A stretch of DNA of 64,000 nt. Origin: a virus. Taxonomy: Duplodnaviria; Heunggongvirae; Uroviricota; Caudoviricetes. Below, piece by piece: positions 4,392-56,002 of this stretch (position 1 is its first letter; every line of letters begins with the position of its first letter). The translations under genes were made by a program, and so were the position numbers. Location: the IMG/VR virus record IMGVR_UViG_3300034072_000647; one strand, 5' to 3'. The notes beneath the pieces were generated by a model. It was not told the DNA's origin. It saw only the letters and a list, made by a program, of their open reading frames with translations, and searched no databases.

Positions 4392-4469
4392 TGGCGAAGG
4401 TTCAGAGAGTCGAACTCTGTCCTCAAGGTTTTGGAGACCCGCGGCTTAACCGTTTGCCCTAACCAACGC
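4392..4469 (-). tRNA. tRNA (anticodon unresolved)
   Basis: T-arm CAGAGTTCGACTCTCTG and a CCA end. The acceptor pairing is partial. Confidence 0.4.
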
Positions 4470-7640: not shown

Positions 7641-7715
7641 TGGTACTCCTAAGGAATTCTGAGATCCTAACCTTCTGCGTGTCGAGCAGATGCTCTACCT
7701 TTGAGCTATAGGAGC
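7641..7715 (-). tRNA. tRNA-Val(GAC)-like with unusual T-loop
   Basis: Acceptor GCTCCTA/TAGGAGT. D-arm AGCTC...GAGCA. Anticodon TCTGC-TCGACAC-GCAGA (C33). CCA end. Confidence 0.45.
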
Positions 7716-10731: not shown

Positions 10732-10941
10732 TTATCCCTTTTGCTTTTTAGCTAGCTCATCGTCTAGCTTTTTCCATTCCTTGTCGAAGTCTTTCTTTTT
10801 ATTACCAGACAAGGTAGTAGTGTAGGCCTCAGTCCACTCGATTGCATCCCGCAAATACGGAGTAGGCTTGCCCAAAATCTTATTAGTCTCATCCATCATG
10901 ATCGCTCGTTGCATACGATCCCAGAAGAACTGTGCACTCAT
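10732..10941 (-). CDS. Hypothetical protein (69 aa)
   Basis: ORF. Confidence 0.45.
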   Translation of the reverse strand: MSAQFFWDRMQRAIMMDETNKILGKPTPYLRDAIEWTEAYTTTLSGNKKKDFDKEWKKLDDELAKKQKG

Positions 10942-11084
10942 TTCAGTATACCTTTCGACAGAGTTGAAGTCTGTTGCCTTACCATTAGGCTAATTTTCCT
11001 AGAGCGGAAAATATTGGAATTGAACCAATATAATTGTTTTGCTGCTAGTATACTTTATATACTTTAACAGGTTTCATAAAAGAC

Positions 11085-13567: not shown

Positions 13568-13642
13568 TGGAGCGGGCGACGGGAATCGAACCCGCTCTAT
13601 GTACGGTTTGGAAGACCGACCGCATACCTTATGCTCGCCTGC
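13568..13642 (-). tRNA. tRNA-Gly(TCC)
   Basis: Anticodon GCGGT-CTTCCAA-ACCGT. T-arm AGCGGGTTCGATTCCCGT. CCA end. Confidence 0.6.
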
Positions 13643-14931: not shown

Positions 14932-15009
14932 TGGTGAACCGACGAGGATTTGAACCTCGATCCCAAGGATTAAGAGTCCCGGTATTAGCCTATTATTAAG
15001 ATCGGTCCA
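14932..15009 (-). tRNA. tRNA with CTCTTAA anticodon loop (Lys-CTT-like)
   Basis: T-arm CGAGGTTCAAATCCTCG, CCA end, AT-rich D-arm. Confidence 0.5.
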
Positions 15010-27901: not shown

Positions 27902-28429
27902 AGAGTATCTCCTAAATTCTGTGGCCCGTTGGGTAACAAGGTGGGCCAGACCCCGGTCACTTATGCGGCGAGACGAATCTCGTCGAAAGCGACAACGTCA
28001 TTGTCGTTTGCGTTTACTTTTTGTGGCCAGTTTAAGTTTAGCCAGACTATAGCCTAACGTGCTTTTTTCACGCCGAATCGATCTCAGTTCTGCCCCATCA
28101 ATATTCTAGTAAAACTTCTAAGCTACACTGACCCATGCCAACGTCCTTAGACCATAGGAATCTCTCGTTTTGCAATCGAGCGCTTTGTTTTTCTGTTACC
28201 GCAGAATGGTCATTCGTCTTGTCGGGAGAGTAGTGCCTCGGTAAAAGCAGGGAGTCCCTATACTAGAATAATGGTGGAGCAGGTGGGAGTCAAACCCACG
28301 TCTTCAGCTGCTATTAAGTCGCTTCAAGCGGCTATTTAGTTAGATAAGTATAATGTTACCACGCAGGGTAGAGAACAATATACTTATCAATCTCGTTATG
28401 TCTCAATATACTAAATTTGAGCCGTCAAG

Positions 28430-33921: not shown

Positions 33922-34801
33922 AAAATCTCCTATTGATGACTCATTATACGCCAACTAAACATGTGAGTCAACACGTAACTTTGGAAGTGCTTGAAATGCG
34001 GTGGTCGGCGCACAGCAAAATGGGCAGCAACCCGAAAGTTGCTGCCCATGCCCCGGCAAATTCGTATTACGGGTTGATCCGGCCTGAACTTCTGCGCTTC
34101 AGGTCTTTAGGTGGGTTAATTACTCCGCTTGTTACCTCCTCAGATATTTCCCGCGAGGACGGGCCGGTTCTCCGGTATAAGGCAGTTTTAACTTCTGCCA
34201 AAGTAGACACATTTTGAGGACCAAGGAGACTTATGACGTAATCTCAGCTATCTCAAGGCTGCACCATGCCTAAACTGAACGTGAGGTCGCTCACCACCTG
34301 CTCCTCACCAACCGCATAGCCGGCCTTGACCCGCGGTTCCCGTCTAATTGTCGTCTGCGGCCGCGAACCGGACCACAAAATCCTACTAAGCCGCTAAGCC
34401 TAGATTTACCGTTAGTCTCTTACATGAACTTGTTCGGCAATCCTTAATGGTACGTGAAGTGTCTCGACCACGCACATCCGCTTTGTTCTACACAACAAAG
34501 ACCGTCTCTCTTTAGGCTAGAGCCGCCTATCAGGGTTAACTACCCCAATATGAATCAGGAGTTGAGGTCGTCTTCGATTACACCGCGTACGTCGGAAACC
34601 TCTTTCATCGTCGGGTCGTTGATCTCCTGAACTGTTAAACCGAGCCGGAGGTTAGTCCGGGGAATTCTTTGACTGGTCACAGGCAATTTTTCCTAGGATG
34701 CCAGCAATCGCAGTAGTAACAAGTTTGCTCCACGATTTAGCCCAGCTTGTAGCGGAGATCAACCCGCGTCTGGATTAAGGAGCCTCTATCTTACTTTCCA
34801 C

Positions 34802-34871
34802 TTCTCGGAACTCTGGTGGTGCGTTAGGGAATCGAACCCGACATGATATGAAGCCTATAGAACTTCCATGC
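34802..34871 (-). tRNA. Degenerate tRNA-like element (T-arm GGGTTCGATTCCC, CCA end, truncated anticodon region)
   Basis: Lies inside a 1.9 kb ORF-free island. Confidence 0.3.
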
Positions 34872-35083
34872 TATCTACAAACCTTTTACTCTCCTAACAT
34901 CACTTCTAGACAGAAAGGCCTTCCCGTTCTAGGTTACTGATAGTCAAGCGATAGTCGCACCAAAATCATATTATATAGAGTCAGGCTGGTCAGCATTGCC
35001 AGCGAAATACTCTAATTCTCGGAGCTGTTCGAGGAGTCGTTTTTAACGCCCGGTTAAACTACTGAATCTATATAATATGCGCG

Positions 35084-35152
35084 TTTGCAGGCTGGGACTC
35101 GAACCCAGACTCCCGATCATAGGCCGGGGTGCTGCCGTTACACTACCTGCGT
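35084..35152 (-). tRNA. tRNA-like element (anticodon hairpin CCCGG-CCTATGA-TCGGG; no CCA)
   Basis: T-arm CTGGGTTCGAGTCCCAG and a D-arm-like GTG..CAC. Confidence 0.3.
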
Positions 35153-35484
35153 CCCTCGCGAAGGGTTGACCGAGCATTTAAGCGCTACTACTCGATCGAA
35201 CAGATACAGACGCTTAGCGACTGTGCTGCATGTACGGGTTCTTCGCAAGAGTCCCGTTCTCTTGACAGATTGCGTTTAACGTGCCATCTGCAAACCACAT
35301 TGCTAGCTTAACGGGGACTCGAACCCTCTTACTTAACGTAACCAACCCTGGCAGCTAGACTTCCTCATTCTATATCCGAGAGGCACAGACCCTGGGTTTC
35401 ATCCCATTAATATCAGTCTTCGGGAGAGTTAATTACCACTCACAACTAAGCAACACCAAATGTTAAGTGCCTGTTGCCACACTT

Positions 35485-35557
35485 TTCTTGATGTAGGAAT
35501 CCAACCTACCTTTATTCCGGTTTAAATCCGGATTGACTCGCAGAATCATAATCAAGA
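35485..35557 (-). tRNA. tRNA-like element with anticodon loop ATTTAAA (UUA, ochre-suppressor-like); T-loop TTGGATT
   Basis: Perfect hairpin TCCGG-ATTTAAA-CCGGA. Acceptor TCTTGAT/ATCAAGA. D-stem GATT/AATC. The T-loop deviates (G56). Confidence 0.3.
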
Positions 35558-35918
35558 CACTGGTTTATCACGTACGCCTCCTTGGAGGTTTCTCTTGCAA
35601 TCCGCTTCTAGCCAGCATGTCGCCATCAGCCCGATAAGCTAACCCTCAATTACTAAGACATATGAGCCAGTGCAGGGTCTGGTGGTTAATAACTCATATG
35701 AATATCGGCTGTTTCGCGTCCCACGACATTAACACCTTCTCAGTGCCACCAATTGATGTAGGCTCCGATGCACATAACTTTCTCGGATTTAATAGCGTAT
35801 AATATTGTGCTAACCTATAAGACGCTCGGCAAGGCACCCTGTGGATACCGGCCTAACTTCGTATTCGCGTCTTGATGTCTCATTATATCAACTTTAGGGT
35901 CTCAAGTCAAGAATTATT

Positions 35919-38609: not shown

Positions 38610-38868
38610 AATCCCATTCCATAATTAGAAAGTCAATAGCGCTTACCTCTTTTGGAGTAAGGCTCGCTCTATTTACTGGCATCTTCCACAGCCAATCACG
38701 AGTGAGCTTAAAGCCTCTACCCTCTAAGTAAGTGATAGCTTGGCTTTCATCAGTTCCCCACTCGTCTCTGAGGTAATCAGGCGCTGTTGGCATTTCGGTG
38801 AATCTCGTTTCTAAGAGTGTAAAGGCTTTTAAGTAGCTGAGGGTGGCCGTCCTCTCTAAACCACTCAT
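38587..38868 (-). CDS. Hypothetical protein (93 aa)
   Basis: ORF. Confidence 0.45.
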   Translation of the reverse strand: MSGLERTATLSYLKAFTLLETRFTEMPTAPDYLRDEWGTDESQAITYLEGRGFKLTRDWLWKMPVNRASLTPKEVSAIDFLIMEWDYGGLDLD

Positions 38869-39229
38869 CGTTAACAGGACCTAGACCAACGGCGGTGGTA
38901 GTGGTACACTCAAACACAGTATAGCCACAATCATCCACAATAGTAGCACCCATGTACGGCTTATAAAGTTCATATAAGTGTTCCAGGTCCTGTACAGTAT
39001 CTACTACTAGAGCGATCTTACGGGCATCGTCACCGTTACGGTAGTCATCCATAGTATCGCAATAATCATACCCTAGAAATCCTGGGGCTTCTTCATGTTC
39101 TGAATTAGTGCGATCCTCTGCATCCCACCAAGCATGTAGGTAAGCGTGTCCTGCCTGAGCGGCTAGCTTACCTTCAAATTTCATCTGCGAGAGAGTTTCT
39201 CGGCAGAAAATGGCATACATCTTAATCAT
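38777..39229 (-). CDS. Peptidyl-tRNA hydrolase, PTH2 family-like
   Basis: KMYAIFCRETLSQMKFEGKLAAQAGHA and KIALVVD...GYTVFE...TTTAVGLGP follow the PTH2 pattern (KMVLVVRTDL.MGKGKIAAQCSHA ... DAGYT ... GIGP). Confidence 0.6.
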   Translation of the reverse strand: MIKMYAIFCRETLSQMKFEGKLAAQAGHAYLHAWWDAEDRTNSEHEEAPGFLGYDYCDTMDDYRNGDDARKIALVVDTVQDLEHLYELYKPYMGATIVDDCGYTVFECTTTTAVGLGPVNDEWFREDGHPQLLKSLYTLRNEIHRNANSA

Positions 39230-50896: not shown

Positions 50897-51124
50897 GTTA
50901 TCATATTAGCACTTAACAATTAGTGGGTCAACTACTATTTTCAGAAAAACAGACTATTATAACTTGAAAATATACCCATTCCCCCTCGTTTTAGTCTGGT
51001 TATATTATTCGACTAAGCGCTTGTGCTAGATAGTTACGACCCTGGGAAAAATAATTCTTGACTTTTGGCAAAAGTCATGATACTATAGTAACGTAGTTAC
51101 AGATTGGTAGTATGCAAAAATTGA

Positions 51125-51262
51125 TTTATCAGACTGCGGAGGATGTCCCTAATTACATTAGGTAAGGTACTTTGAAGAGAAGGAAGAGGCCTCTGGACGG
51201 AGGGAATTCTCGGGTACCTTAACTGAATGTCTATTAGGGACATATCCTCCGCAGGTAATTTA
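51125..51262. repeat. Large imperfect inverted repeat (about 40-bp arms, about 50-bp spacer)
   Basis: CTGCGGAGGATGTCCCTAATTACATTAGGTAAGGTAC ... GGTACCTTAACTGAATGTCTATTAGGGACATATCCTCCGCAG. Confidence 0.6.
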
Positions 51263-52104
51263 ATCTTACCAAAGCGGTAAGATCATTTTACAATAAGTCA
51301 AAGGTCCTCATCGTATTGCGTCTTCACTACGTGAAGACCAATGCAACGTGCTAAAGTGATTTAATTCACTATGGAATACTAAGGCAACTTGATGGGTTGC
51401 ATACCAATTTTCATCTATTTCATAAAATTGGAACGAACTCCGCTACCGGCCGCCCCACCTCCTAGCTTCGTGAACATGCTCTAGCTTATTATGACCTTTA
51501 AAGGGTTGTAGCAGGCTTTTATTTTGTCCTAAGCATACGCACTTCATTCCCATCACCCTAGATTGAGTAAATACTGTAGTGTGCGTTGGTCTGCTACACC
51601 CGTTGAAAGGCCCGTAGTCGGTTGCAACCTGCCACAGGTCCGCAGCAAATTTTTCTGAATCCGCTCGAATTTGCACTAAATTCGGCGCAACTTTTCCCGC
51701 AAACCACCCGTTGCATCCCGTTATCATCGAGCAAAGTGGCAGAAAATAAAAATATGTGGTTAAATCAGCACTTTGTCAAATAAATCTTGACTTTACGCAA
51801 AATAAGGCTTATAATCGTGGCGTTTACCGAATATGGTAGATTTTGCACTGATATTGAATTTGCACTGCCGCCGGCGCAGGTGAGTTTCGGCGCTAGAGAA
51901 ATTTTGGTCGAAATCTGTCTTTGGCACGAAGATGCCTAGCTGGGTAGCTTTAGCACTGGTCGAATTAGCACTTTATTGGCCACACGTAAAAATAGTTGTT
52001 GAACTACTACTGCCGCCGGCGCAATAGCAGCGCTATTGCGAATCATTAGCAATAAAAAATCCTTTGTTTTCAATGACTTAGCTGGAACCGACCGGCCGCC
52101 AAAT

Positions 52105-52190
52105 GTTACGTTATATCATATCCCTATGTGATGATATATCATATCCTGATGTTACGTTATATCATATCGTCATGTTATAACATATCCTAG
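52105..52190. repeat. Four direct repeats of TTATATCATATCC-like 13-mers at about 21-bp spacing
   Basis: ttatatcatatcc / atatatcatatcc / ttatatcatatcg / ttataacatatcc. Confidence 0.55.
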
Positions 52191-52259
52191 CCGGTCTCAG
52201 GGGGCACGATTATAGCAGCGTTCGCGGTCGTGTCAAGCCCAAGAAAAATAAATTTTTGC

Positions 52260-52320
52260 TTGACGCGGGCTTGCTAGTCTGCCAAAATCGGCGCAAGTTA
52301 TTGAGAATGATTCTCAGTAG
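52260..52320 (+). promoter_or_regulatory. Promoter-hairpin unit: TTGACG-N17-CAAAAT-CGGCGCAA plus palindrome TTGAGAATGATTCTCA
   Basis: Plus-strand sigma70 consensus with a GC-rich discriminator. No downstream plus-strand ORF. Confidence 0.5.
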
Positions 52321-52354
52321 AGGACAAAAGAAAAGGGCCTTGCGGCCCAAGTCT

Positions 52355-53195: not shown

Positions 53196-53522
53196 TAGCC
53201 GTATCGGTTGACTAGCAAAACGCCGTTTTAACTATTCAGCAGACGATACTGTTATAGGGTGACAATTCCGGTTTAATGAGAATTACGGAAAGCCCCTTGC
53301 TAAGTCTGACCTATCTCCATTTCAACCAAACCTAACTAATGATCGCTTTTCGTTTGTCACGCTTCCCGTTCGCCCCGTCTTTAATTGCTATTTTTCAAGC
53401 CGCGAGTGAAAGGGGAAATGGAAGCTATGACAAATCAGGCTAATCGAATCCAAACCTTATGCGATGATTATAGACGTTTTGGGCGGGCCGGTCAAGAATT
53501 ATTTTGACCGGCCCTAATCCCG

Positions 53523-54205: not shown

Positions 54206-55870
54206 TTAGGCAAAAATGATTTGCCGCTGCCCGTTGGCATATGTGATAGTATCCGCGATTGCCCATGACGATGCGCCGATATTATATCCCATTTCCAGCG
54301 ATGCCGTTACGCCAGCCGTAAAGCAAGGATAGAAAATGCTAGGGCTGTGTGTGTGCCCGGTGTTCATCGGAACGCCAAGCGCCGCAAATTGTTTTGGCGA
54401 CCCGCGCGACCCGTTGACACCATTGTGCCCATGATTGCCCATTTCGACACCGGCGATAACTAGGCTTTCATCGGTTTCATGAAAATTGATTTGATCCGAA
54501 TAACCGCCTTCGCCAATTTCTTCATATGCATATTGCAGCATATTGAAATAATCGCCGTTTCCTTCCTCTTTATGGCGGTAAAGCGCCGTCATGCAATCCA
54601 GATAGACAAGTGCGTTTATCGGATCAATCTTAAAGTCAGCATTTTTCAGCCAAGTATTTATGGCCAAATCGTGGTTGCTTTCCACAATGTGAATCTGCCC
54701 GTCATGGCGGAAAGTCGTTTCCGCAATGGCGTCCAGAACGTCGGCCAGCTTTTGCAGGTCGCCGCGCACCGTATTGCCCTTGACGAATTGTTCATGCAGG
54801 AAAGTCGGATCCTTGATATTATGATGGTTCCGGCTGGAAAAATCCAAAACGTCATGCAGGATCACATTTGACGGCTTGAAATTCAGGATCATTTCGCAAG
54901 CGCGATCGAGATTGGCTTGCTCCATCTTTTCCGCATGAATGTCACCGAATTGCAAAGCCGCAACGTCGCCACGCGACAAGGGAACGAAAGCCGATGCGGA
55001 ATAGAAACCGTCCACATCATAGAAGCCGCTTTCGCCGTCCAGCTTGTGCAAATGCCGCATTTCGTTCGTGACAGTATCGACAAACACCGCGCCGATGCAA
55101 TGCGCCGCGCTTGCCTTAGCGCCGCGACCGCGAACGATATAGTTACGCTTGGTAACTGCGCCAGTGCCGACGATGGTTTTCGTTTTCGCGCCCTTCAGTG
55201 CCGCGCCTACGCGAAGCTCAATTTTGGACGTTGGCACGATAGCATGAACGCCGGGAGGCGTATTGCCATCGAATCCTTGCGTCGGCCATTGTGCCGTCAC
55301 GATGACATTTGCGTCGGCCAGAAAATGCGCGCCGTGCAAGTCGATTGTGCCGCGAACAATATAGCGCTTGATCGCCGGATCAAACCAGATATTTGCCTCG
55401 GGATCACCGCTGCCCATATCGTCAAGCGACACTTGACGAAACGCCTTTTTATTATAGACCGTCTGCGCGACCAGAATTTTCGCGCCGTGCATTTCCGCGT
55501 AGCGTTCCAGTGCCGCGAGAAAATCGCGGTCAACATCAGTGTTATTCTGCGCGACGGTCAGGATATAGCGGCCAGCCGGGAAAGCGTCAATATGGTCGCC
55601 AGCTTCCTGAGAAGCCGAAACCGGCATGGCTTCCAGCTTCGCCAGCTTCGCGGCGTCACGCGCCAGCTTCGCGGCTTCGCGCTTGCGCTTGGCGTCTGCC
55701 TTTTCCGCCTGATAGTTGACCAGCATCTGCCAATCATCGTCGGTAGGATCGCGATCAAATTCCGCCGCGAAGTCACCCGACAAGTCATCCCATGCCTTGC
55801 GCTGATTTTCCGGCGTTTTCTTGCGAAATACGCCAGCCGCGCTTGCAAATGCGATGATTTCTGTATTCAT
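54206..55870 (-). CDS. Large metallophosphoesterase, T5 A1-like (554 aa)
   Basis: Motifs GDIHA, HDVLDF, SNHD, GNHGHNG and GHTHSP are present. The start was placed at MNTEIIAF after an AAAGGAG SD. Size and context match the T5 pre-early protein A1 (by inference). Confidence 0.75.
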   Translation of the reverse strand: MNTEIIAFASAAGVFRKKTPENQRKAWDDLSGDFAAEFDRDPTDDDWQMLVNYQAEKADAKRKREAAKLARDAAKLAKLEAMPVSASQEAGDHIDAFPAGRYILTVAQNNTDVDRDFLAALERYAEMHGAKILVAQTVYNKKAFRQVSLDDMGSGDPEANIWFDPAIKRYIVRGTIDLHGAHFLADANVIVTAQWPTQGFDGNTPPGVHAIVPTSKIELRVGAALKGAKTKTIVGTGAVTKRNYIVRGRGAKASAAHCIGAVFVDTVTNEMRHLHKLDGESGFYDVDGFYSASAFVPLSRGDVAALQFGDIHAEKMEQANLDRACEMILNFKPSNVILHDVLDFSSRNHHNIKDPTFLHEQFVKGNTVRGDLQKLADVLDAIAETTFRHDGQIHIVESNHDLAINTWLKNADFKIDPINALVYLDCMTALYRHKEEGNGDYFNMLQYAYEEIGEGGYSDQINFHETDESLVIAGVEMGNHGHNGVNGSRGSPKQFAALGVPMNTGHTHSPSIFYPCFTAGVTASLEMGYNIGASSWAIADTITYANGQRQIIFA

Positions 55871-56002
55871 TTCATAGGCTCCTTTGCCACTAAGAATTTG
55901 CAAGTCCGTTTCCCGTCCTTGCCCTCCCCTTATACAGACGCCAGCGGATAACACAATAGGGAAAATTCGATTAGTGCGATTTTATTTAGAAAATTTTTTC
56001 GC

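Follow-up and report, generated by a model that had tools for sequence, protein, structure and literature searches.

A candidate RNA-only operon of tRNA-derived and structured RNAs in the early region of a distant T5-like phage

The early region of a distant T5-like phage (IMG/VR record IMGVR_UViG_3300034072_000647) contains an island of nearly 2 kb, at positions 33955-35915, in which a preliminary description had found no open reading frame (ORF) of 60 amino acids (aa) or more on the coding strand and several tRNA-like motifs, one of them with an anticodon that would read UAA. The stretch of 64,000 nucleotides (nt) that was analyzed is referred to as the window, and its numbering is used throughout. 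What is such a locus for: is it a tRNA cluster in decay, a suppressor that alters how stop codons are read, or a unit that makes RNA in its own right? We put the probability at about 0.6 that the island is a modular early operon dedicated to RNA, one that would yield tRNA-derived and structured RNAs. The island is non-coding, it bears transcription signals, it contains elements of tRNA ancestry and it is a mosaic of modules; its position is syntenic in relatives, where the RNA core at the locus displays covariation.

A predicted transcription unit with tRNA-derived elements

Within 33955-35915 the longest ORF on the minus strand, the direction in which the genes of the window run, measured 47 aa. 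Trained on 42 genes of the phage itself, a codon model detected frame contrast in the flanking genes and none across the island. In a protein-family search, stop-to-stop fragments of the island hit no PHROG family, and the two Pfam matches that appeared fell far short of their cut-offs. The island thus proved as free of ORFs as the preliminary description had claimed, and no relative carried an ORF at its position. A hidden gene under an alternative code was ruled out, since no long frame opened on readthrough of TAA, TAG or TGA, and a decayed protein gene was ruled out by the lack of a coding signal and of a significant Pfam or PHROG match.

The signals and segments of the unit are listed below from upstream to downstream. 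Fold energies are given as z scores against shuffled sequences, and haplotypes A to D are the forms of the island found among near-identical genomes (see the next section).

35882-35910, minus strand: sigma-70-type early promoter, TTGACT-17-TATAAT with a TG extension, 11 of 12 consensus positions, member of a 32-copy family
35620-35875, minus strand: 5′ leader, from haplotype alignment, its upstream part replaced in haplotype D
34967-35079, minus strand: long hairpin with 18-nt arms, 94% complementary, between the tRNA-Ile-like gene and the 148-nt element, z −3.56
34050-34274, minus strand: 3′ transcript segment, in all complete haplotypes, no significant fold
34020-34049, minus strand: intrinsic terminator of the RNA operon, a 12-13 bp stem and then a T-run, z about −4.6 (−4.62)
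33943-33971, minus strand: separate promoter serving the protein-coding gene that follows; it marks off the RNA unit downstream and lies in a region conserved in distant relatives

The promoter family (TTGAC-N18-TATAATG, also given as TTGACT-N17-TATAATG) has 32 matches, almost all on the minus strand, against 0.36 expected by chance. Examples lie at 36181-36153, 33971-33943 and 16954-16925, and one copy stands directly upstream of the main tRNA cluster. The island promoter is nearly identical in all haplotypes, with a single substitution, in the −10 hexamer, and the transcript would probably start near 35875. At the opposite end, the 10-bp hairpin that had been reported at 34024-34050 turned out to be longer (12-13 bp at 34020-34049) and to be followed by TTTT on the minus strand; its stem has paired, compensating changes in the related contig L003, and equivalent terminators were present in the relatives L023, L027, L028, L030 and L031. 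Together, the promoter, the terminator and the separate promoter of the next gene argue that the island is one discrete RNA-only transcription unit of ~1.86 kb, predicted to run from the promoter at 35910-35882 to the terminator at 34049-34020. In its leader, the 8-bp inverted repeat described earlier at 35655-35700 was located as CATATGAG at 35659-35666 and CTCATATG at 35694-35701; the region of this hairpin (35659-35701) had 0 substitutions in 65 nt across haplotypes, and the leader as a whole did not fold significantly better than its shuffles (z −0.6). The long hairpin at 34967-35079 is possibly a processing site.

The island is situated ~18 kb away from the main tRNA cluster of the phage, which occupies 1.3-16.8 kb and in which 30 tRNAs were called by ARAGORN and six by Rfam only, so that it comprises at least 36 tRNAs. 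Thirteen copies of the exact T-arm 13-mer GGGTTCGANTCCC were counted in the window, where 0.00 would be expected, and all are on the minus strand, 10 of them in main-cluster tRNA genes and three in the island. All the T-arm motifs of the preliminary description were recovered, with the positions 34815, 35096 and 35315 corrected to 34827-34839, 35094-35106 and 35314-35326; the fourth, which had been placed at 35495, is the variant GGTTGGATTCC at 35496-35506. Using default settings, ARAGORN called tRNA-Ile(tat) at 35083-35152 and tRNA-Stop(tta) at 35485-35557 in the island, and made no call in 1,000 dinucleotide shuffles of it (1.96 Mb) or in the other 45 kb beyond the main cluster. The T-arm excess, the ARAGORN calls and the empty shuffles therefore mark the island elements as real tRNA-derived sequences, and covariance-model support for a tRNA fold was obtained with Rfam. 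Four such elements were distinguished.

35485-35557, minus strand: tRNA(UUA) with an ochre-suppressor-type anticodon, a default ARAGORN call with no pseudogene flag
35295-35362, minus strand: T-arm remnant with GGGTTCGAGTCCC at 35314-35326, closed by CTAGCT/AGCTAG, no cloverleaf, in all haplotypes
35083-35152, minus strand: tRNA-Ile(UAU)-like gene, called by ARAGORN and scoring 34.1 bits with the Rfam tRNA model, above the cut-off of 29
34814-34961, minus strand: 148-nt tRNA-like RNA with a 6-7 bp acceptor stem (GGUGCG/CGCACC), a T-arm, discriminator A and an encoded CCA (ACCA end)

The anticodon-type hairpin that had drawn attention to the first of these, TCCGG-ATTTAAA-CCGGA, lies within it. 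The tRNA(UUA) has a 7-bp acceptor stem, a 5-bp anticodon stem, the loop A-U-UUA-A-A (U33, A37) and discriminator A; its minimum-energy fold is a cloverleaf (z −3.28), which also forms in a 257-nt context. The tRNA-Ile(UAU) is found in all four haplotypes and the two substitutions between them fit its structure; since AUA makes up 16% of the Ile codons of the phage, a tRNA that reads UAU could be useful. In the 148-nt element a canonical T-arm is stacked on the acceptor stem and there is an internal UAU "anticodon" hairpin (fold z −1.9), with an interior ~90 nt too long for a tRNA. No close paralogue of either island tRNA was found in the main cluster.

Other identities were considered and rejected. 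For transfer-messenger RNA (tmRNA), Rfam matched the 13-nt T-arm only (10.9 bits), and ARAGORN gave tmRNA calls at 80% thresholds only, inconsistently between haplotypes. GOLLD, ROOL and ribozymes had no Rfam support, and extra ARAGORN calls at low thresholds or in intron mode, which were likewise inconsistent between haplotypes, were treated as noise.

Constant and optional modules

Thirteen contigs of the same phage lineage, from independent samples and retrieved by exact-protein look-ups, cover the island at least partly. They fall into four island haplotypes, of 1984, 1467, 1480 and 1274 bp, which differ by the presence of three modules.

35363-35619, minus strand: optional module S with the UUA tRNA, in haplotypes A and B, replaced by an unrelated ~118 nt in C and D
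34812-35073, minus strand: module of the 148-nt CCA element, replaced by ~110 nt in haplotype B and in contig L017
34275-34633, minus strand: 359-nt module bounded by GTTCAG repeats, in haplotype A only

The shortest haplotype retains the leader hairpin, the T-arm remnant, the segment 35153-35294, the tRNA-Ile(UAU), the segment 34634-34811, the segment 34050-34274 and the terminator. Substitutions were distributed unevenly over the island. Near-invariant across haplotypes were 34634-34811 (0-1 changes in 178 nt), the hairpin H0 described below (0 in 31 nt) and the leader hairpin (0 in 65 nt), and more variable were 34050-34274 (6-8 in 225), the sequence upstream of H0 (8 in 87) and the CCA element (5 in 148); the neighbours of the invariant segments differ by 3-9% between haplotypes. 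This pattern hints at constraint, although recombination could have contributed to it. The whole early region is mosaic among the near-identical genomes.

The locus in distant relatives and a possible IMES-2 link

The Band_7 protein encoded near the island has homologues ~47% identical on other phage contigs, and these distant relatives were compared with the window. In all eight that were retrieved (8/8) the same gene order was observed, namely, PTH2, DUF7020 with small genes, a gene-free gap, small genes, Band_7, a cell-wall hydrolase, S21 and dUTPase, with the gap measuring 0.55-1.5 kb and taking the same syntenic position as the island. Thus, the island occupies the slot of a non-coding locus that is conserved in a clade with ~47% identical proteins. 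The gaps of the relatives are homologous to one another (e.g., 62% over 849 nt), and parts of the island match them as well: window 34553-34642, comprising the first ~80 nt of the 359-nt module and the last nucleotides of the preceding segment, is 79% identical to L027 over 90 nt (E 8e-16), window 34722-34787 is 78% identical to L028 over 67 nt, and the region of the terminator and the next promoter matches several relatives. L028 is laid out like the window, with a 12/12 promoter, a tRNA-like gene, the core RNA, a window-like module, the terminator and the next promoter. Its tRNA-like gene, at L028 4058-4142 just after the locus promoter, resembles a type-II tRNA, is 85 nt long and carries AUU (Asn, A34), an unusual anticodon. 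Apart from L028, no canonical tRNA was found in the gaps of the distant relatives; the non-coding locus is therefore the older element, and the tRNA-derived genes were added to it in particular lineages.

What the relatives share at this locus is an RNA core with three hairpins, H0, H1 and H2, which the alignment revealed to be common to seven of them. Copies of it lie at the following positions.

L023 2425-2560, three-hairpin core
L025 5499-5634, three-hairpin core
L027 5236-5371, three-hairpin core
L028 4569-4704, three-hairpin core
L030 2085-2220, three-hairpin core
L031 4998-5133, three-hairpin core

Double compensatory changes were seen at 16 of the 21 predicted pairs. In total, 94.5% of cells were paired, compared with 64.6% in shuffles; none of 500 shuffles was as good, and slid controls collapsed. 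When the loci were searched permissively with Rfam 15, no family reached its threshold on the core. The three-hairpin RNA of the relatives is thus supported by covariation, conserved in the clade and without an Rfam family. A model built here from this core, R1, scored 115-133 bits in the relatives. Further core copies were present in the metagenome contigs L083/L110, L095 and L126. The idea of an attenuator, in which a terminator-type hairpin overlaps H2, was dropped because it is not conserved in L030 or L031.

Two segments of the island relate to this core.

35171-35194, minus strand: hairpin H0 with the loop AGUAGCGCUUAAAU, equal to the first core hairpin, found by R1 at 11.4 bits (E 0.008 in 4 kb) and unchanged over 31 nt across haplotypes
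34634-34811, minus strand: presumed diverged core copy, GCUAAAU-CGU-GGAGCAAA, two hairpins and CUCGGUUUAAC, the most conserved island segment

A weak full-length alignment of R1 was obtained at 34612-34762 (4.3 bits), and by eye the elements GCUAAAU-GGAGCAAA, two hairpins and C(U/C)CGGUUU follow one another in 34634-34811 as they do in the core, with hairpins that differ in size. On this resemblance, we infer that 34634-34811 may be a diverged copy of the clade RNA core. The conserved part of the island is, in this comparison, RNA other than tRNA (H0, the IMES-2-like region introduced below and 34634-34811), and the tRNA-like genes are optional cassettes.

Searches beyond these contigs added few members. 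GenBank phages yielded no DNA homologue of the island, the UUA tRNA, the Ile/148-nt region or the relatives' core, with generic tRNA similarity only; in the IMG/VR search the phage itself was absent, and four matches to the UUA hairpin were due to chance, with no tRNA at the match. A first pattern scan of metagenomes gave no match, and a second, with the H2 pattern, gave mostly chance matches in GC-rich coding DNA and ~5 true members. Citromicrobium phage vB_CbaS-RXM, the nearest phage in culture, lacks such a locus around its Band_7 gene, and the 97-aa protein flanking the island is an ORFan and led to no relatives. In L030, directly after the Band_7 gene, the segment 4794-4867 matched the Bradyrhizobiaceae small RNA BjrC68 (41.7 bits, threshold 39).

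A second tie leads from H0 to bacterial chromosomes. IMES-2 is an abundant marine RNA for which, to our knowledge, no function has been known since its description. The Rfam model IMES-2 (RF02035) aligned end to end with a segment of the island that includes H0.

35166-35282, minus strand: IMES-2-like structured RNA region, built of a stem nested on three levels that carries a GNRA-type loop, of a variable hairpin and of H0 at its end

The score of this match was 16.6 bits, far below the cut-off of 54.7, with E = 0.51 over 4227 families and ~1e-4 for IMES-2 alone; the match places a GUAGCGC-type P3 loop in H0, aligns a P2-like nested stem and lacks P1. In an independent direction, a scan of bacterial genomes for the H0-GGAGC signature returned 35 loci, among which eight Pelagibacteraceae contigs share one conserved sequence, and the seven of these that were scored proved to be genuine IMES-2 (152-161 bits). 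The loop of IMES-2 hairpin P3 is identical to that of H0, AGUAGCGCUaAAau, and the P4 loop is similar; the H0 module is therefore common to IMES-2 and the phage RNA. The window segment may be a distant relative of IMES-2, and it is not filed under that family, because it scores below the curated threshold, has no P1, and IMES-2 was not detected in the six relatives tested. Between haplotypes, two adjacent compensatory substitutions occur in it, at 35280/35256 and 35279/35257, in two sequence types only, which is suggestive of a candidate pseudoknot helix pairing 35278-35281 with 35255-35258. In L163, a Pelagibacteraceae single-cell genome, IMES-2 (2813-2953) adjoins a 305-aa ORF (1721-2638) that by eye resembles a tyrosine-recombinase/integrase-family protein; it is possible that IMES-2 flags a mobile element or travels on one.

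Proposed role, rival accounts and known systems

Under the reading of the island as a modular RNA-only operon, early transcription would proceed on the minus strand from the host-type promoter at 35910-35882 to the terminator at 34049-34020, and host RNases, both those that process tRNAs and those specific for double strands, would probably release several small RNAs from the primary transcript, the hairpin 34967-35079 and the tRNA-like ends offering natural cut points. All haplotypes would then produce a constant RNA set, consisting of the leader hairpin, the T-arm remnant, the IMES-2-like RNA with H0, the tRNA-Ile(UAU)-like molecule and 34634-34811, and the UUA tRNA, the 148-nt CCA-ending RNA and the 359-nt module would be optional cassettes swapped by recombination or deletion. 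Most likely, the unit would furnish or imitate small RNAs and tRNAs of the host while the phage takes over, possibly by supplementing AUA decoding and/or by providing nuclease-resistant or decoy tRNA-like molecules against tRNA-targeting defences. Transcription, processing, aminoacylation and a part in translation or counter-defence are all predictions from sequence features.

The setting of the locus is a translation-related early region, in a genome with 36 or more tRNAs, a two-piece tmRNA and a PTH2 gene, and with S21 in relatives. The T5-like character of the phage is seen in its A1 protein (54206-55954, minus strand), which is ~41% identical to Demerecviridae A1. The six main-cluster tRNAs that pass the Rfam threshold and went uncalled by ARAGORN are as follows.

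2834-2909, 4395-4467, 7644-7715, 10922-10999, 13571-13642 and 14935-15008, all minus strand: Rfam-only tRNAs

The permuted (two-piece) tmRNA, at 27961-28335 on the minus strand, was found with Rfam (RF04321, 85.6 bits) and missed by default ARAGORN. Permuted tmRNAs are also present in the distant relatives L022, L023, L025 and L030, with an alpha_tmRNA match in L023, L025 and L030; the alpha-type tmRNA points to an alphaproteobacterial host. A PTH2-type peptidyl-tRNA hydrolase is encoded in the early region at 38777-39229 (minus strand). Several relatives (L002, L003 and others) have in their early regions a ribosomal protein S21 gene as well as inserted AAA_33 kinase or HTH genes.

A bolder form of this proposal, which we regard as less likely than not, is that the locus is an undescribed RNA-only accessory island of a T5-like clade of alphaproteobacterial phages, an early-expressed copy or mimic of IMES-2 (or of an H0-type module) combined with shuffled non-canonical tRNA cassettes, one of them decoding UAA, that would manipulate translation or blunt tRNA-targeting defences. 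If so, IMES-2-type RNAs would for the first time become accessible to genetics, and a phage tRNA that reads TAA would be known from nature. Both the clade-conserved covarying RNA without an Rfam match and its tie to IMES-2 in sequence and structure merit testing.

A number of observations weigh against the operon and its IMES-2 form. The IMES-2 match is far below threshold, and no IMES-2 match was found in the six phage relatives tested (L023, L025, L027, L028, L030, L031). The window matches R1 at H0 only, the canonical H1 and H2 are absent, and the full-length alignment of R1 scores just 4.3 bits. The tRNA(UUA) scores 21.1 bits with the Rfam tRNA model (RF00005), below the cut-off of 29, and has a non-canonical elbow, with the T-loop UUGGAUU (G56) and the D-loop UCUGCGA (G18, C19; no G19). 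The tRNA-Ile(UAU) has C33 (loop C-C-UAU-G-A) and five of seven acceptor pairs, with 1-72 and 2-71 unpaired; given C33 and the frayed acceptor stem, its normal function is doubtful. Neither of these tRNAs encodes CCA, as against 33 of the 36 in the main cluster. The substitutions inside the 148-nt element are not compensatory, and for the leader, the flanks in module S, 34634-34811, the 359-nt module and 34050-34274 the fold energies are in the range of shuffles (z −0.9 to +0.7). Three modules are dispensable in nature, and with only four haplotypes, closely related to one another, selection tests have little power; recombination could explain the locally identical segments.

From the same observations one could argue for a second tRNA cluster in decay, a graveyard of pseudogenes and filler that is perhaps transcribed, has no function and is being lost piecemeal. 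The C33 and 5-bp acceptor of the tRNA-Ile(UAU), the bare T-arm remnant at 35295-35362, two called tRNAs without CCA, a sub-threshold UUA tRNA, the deletion or replacement of three modules among near-identical genomes, the non-compensatory substitutions in the 148-nt element and the unremarkable fold energy of most segments would all be expected of it. Yet the promoter and the terminator are kept in all haplotypes (the terminator as seen in the complete ones), and the changes in the terminator are compensatory; a non-coding locus is kept at this place in phages with ~47% identical proteins; the core of the relatives covaries strongly, H0 is exact and 34634-34811 is nearly invariant; and modules are swapped for other sequence, not just deleted. 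We consider this account doubtful. The preliminary description had suggested a degenerating second tRNA cluster or a set of regulatory or decoy RNAs; the non-coding nature and the tRNA-derived elements stand, and a merely decaying cluster gives way to an RNA operon running from promoter to terminator.

An account that we judge improbable is that the UUA tRNA is a live and efficient ochre suppressor, serving recoding or programmed readthrough. The molecule itself would allow it, having a clean cloverleaf with U33, A37 and a perfect 7-bp acceptor; judged by eye, its tertiary pairs 19-56 and 15-48 could have been kept in swapped form, as C19:G56 and C15:G48, and not lost; no comparable ARAGORN call arose in shuffles, and phage suppressor tRNAs are known (bioRxiv 10.1101/2021.08.26.457843, PMC10879173). 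The genome argues otherwise. TAA is the most frequent stop codon among 136 ORFs (TAA 69, TGA 47, TAG 20), and in-frame extension past the stop is no commoner for TAA (12%) than for TAG (23%) or TGA (12%). No gene interrupted by an in-frame TAA, no TAA-specific readthrough and no split gene was found, and in the island no ORF opens under TAA readthrough. The tRNA is absent in haplotypes C and D, although their flanking DNA is ~96-98% identical to the window, and it lacks both a passing Rfam score and CCA. The recoding documented in phages is confined to two cases, TAG read as Gln and TGA read as Trp (bioRxiv 10.1101/2021.08.26.457843). With TAA the commonest stop and no readthrough genes, the suppressor is therefore accessory and the phage appears to use the standard code, with no recoding; the earlier suggestion that a suppressor would matter for stop-codon usage was not borne out. 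If the tRNA suppresses at all, it would do so weakly and dispensably; such a weak activity, or a role outside decoding as a decoy or a nuclease-resistant variant, fits better than a live and efficient suppressor. In recoded phages (crAss-like, Lak), a phage-encoded tRNA likewise has a stop-pairing anticodon, but those phages deplete the recoded stop and carry it in frame, whereas here the anticodon reads the stop used most often, recoded genes are absent and the tRNA itself is optional. A call of a UUA-anticodon tRNA in a phage, then, does not imply recoding, a caution for annotation.

Very unlikely, in our estimate, is that the conserved blocks encode very small proteins, a 17-codon ORF at 34608-34555 and a 19-codon ORF at 35571-35512. 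The former (34555-34608, minus strand; L027 5374-5427) keeps its start, frame, length and stop (MKEVSDVRGVIEDDLNS versus MKEVASLERVIADDLSC), but it has no ribosome-binding site, it lies in a module missing from three haplotypes, and its variable middle forms alternative hairpins in both phages, which fits RNA structure. The latter (35512-35571, minus strand), started by GTG, has a strong Shine-Dalgarno motif, AAGGAGG (~35577-35583), 5 nt before it as read from the sequence, but it overlaps the UUA tRNA and is absent in haplotypes C and D, and nowhere in the island is there a coding signal. The motif, which doubles as one half of a CCUCC/GGAGG palindrome, could be there by chance.

In T5 itself, the stop signal is found in the terminal repeat, no more than a few kb from A1. 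It is hardly tenable that the island acts in cis as DNA, whether as a replication origin, as a packaging site or as such a T5-type injection stop signal, for all that it is a large non-coding region with several inverted repeats in a T5-like genome: it is bracketed on the coding strand by a promoter and a terminator, has no iterons or direct-repeat arrays besides the tRNA T-arms and no GC-skew inflection, and lies ~18 kb from the pre-early gene A1. Gene-poor gaps near A1 are found at 50897-51442, 51940-52354 and 53212-53522, and these are better placed than the island for an injection stop signal.

The operon reading can be set against systems already described. The loop of IMES-2 P3 recurs in the window as that of H0, and the weak end-to-end alignment takes in the nested three-level stem, the GNRA-type loop and the 3′-terminal hairpin followed by AA; the genuine IMES-2 copies found here differ in that they belong to chromosomal contigs of Pelagibacteraceae, where stretches of ~8 kb were examined and gave no tRNA call. 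The three-hairpin RNA of the relatives has the same syntenic locus bounded by promoter and terminator, an identical H0 and homologous flanks, but the window is without the canonical H1 and H2, and in 34634-34811, presumed to be its counterpart there, the hairpins are of other sizes and the score is 4.3 bits. GOLLD and ROOL are large non-coding RNAs of phages and prophages that often adjoin tRNA genes; the island has no Rfam match to either family and, with unremarkable fold energy in most segments, looks like a string of modules and not one ornate fold.

Parallels also exist in the tRNA regions of large lytic phages. T4 makes two stable RNAs, RNAC and RNAD, of unknown function (PMC9697503). 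The T4 tRNA cluster with RNAC and RNAD and the T5 tRNA region resemble the island as phage units that combine tRNAs with small stable RNAs, in large lytic phages with big tRNA arrays. In contrast to them, the island stands apart from the main 36-gene cluster (~18 kb), its tRNAs are non-canonical or defective, it is modular between near-identical genomes, and its constant part is a structured RNA common to the alphaproteobacterial-type T5-like clade; no sequence similarity of the island to T4 or T5 was found. We see the island as a variant form of the known phage arrangement of tRNAs with stable RNAs.

Phage tRNA arrays are now seen as tools of counter-defence besides aids to codon usage, and tRNAs of the T5 family are proven counter-measures to tRNA-cleaving defences (PMC11464382, PMC11555353). 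These counter-defence tRNAs (tRNA-Lys against PARIS, tRNA-Tyr against retron/PtuAB) are, like those of the island, variant tRNAs with altered anticodon arms in accessory, deletable regions (PMC11464382, PMC11555353). They are canonical and chargeable and have sense anticodons, whereas the island's deviate at U33, at position 56 or in the acceptor and one has a stop anticodon. Unusual tRNA-like genes swapped between near-identical phages form the pattern expected of arms-race cargo.

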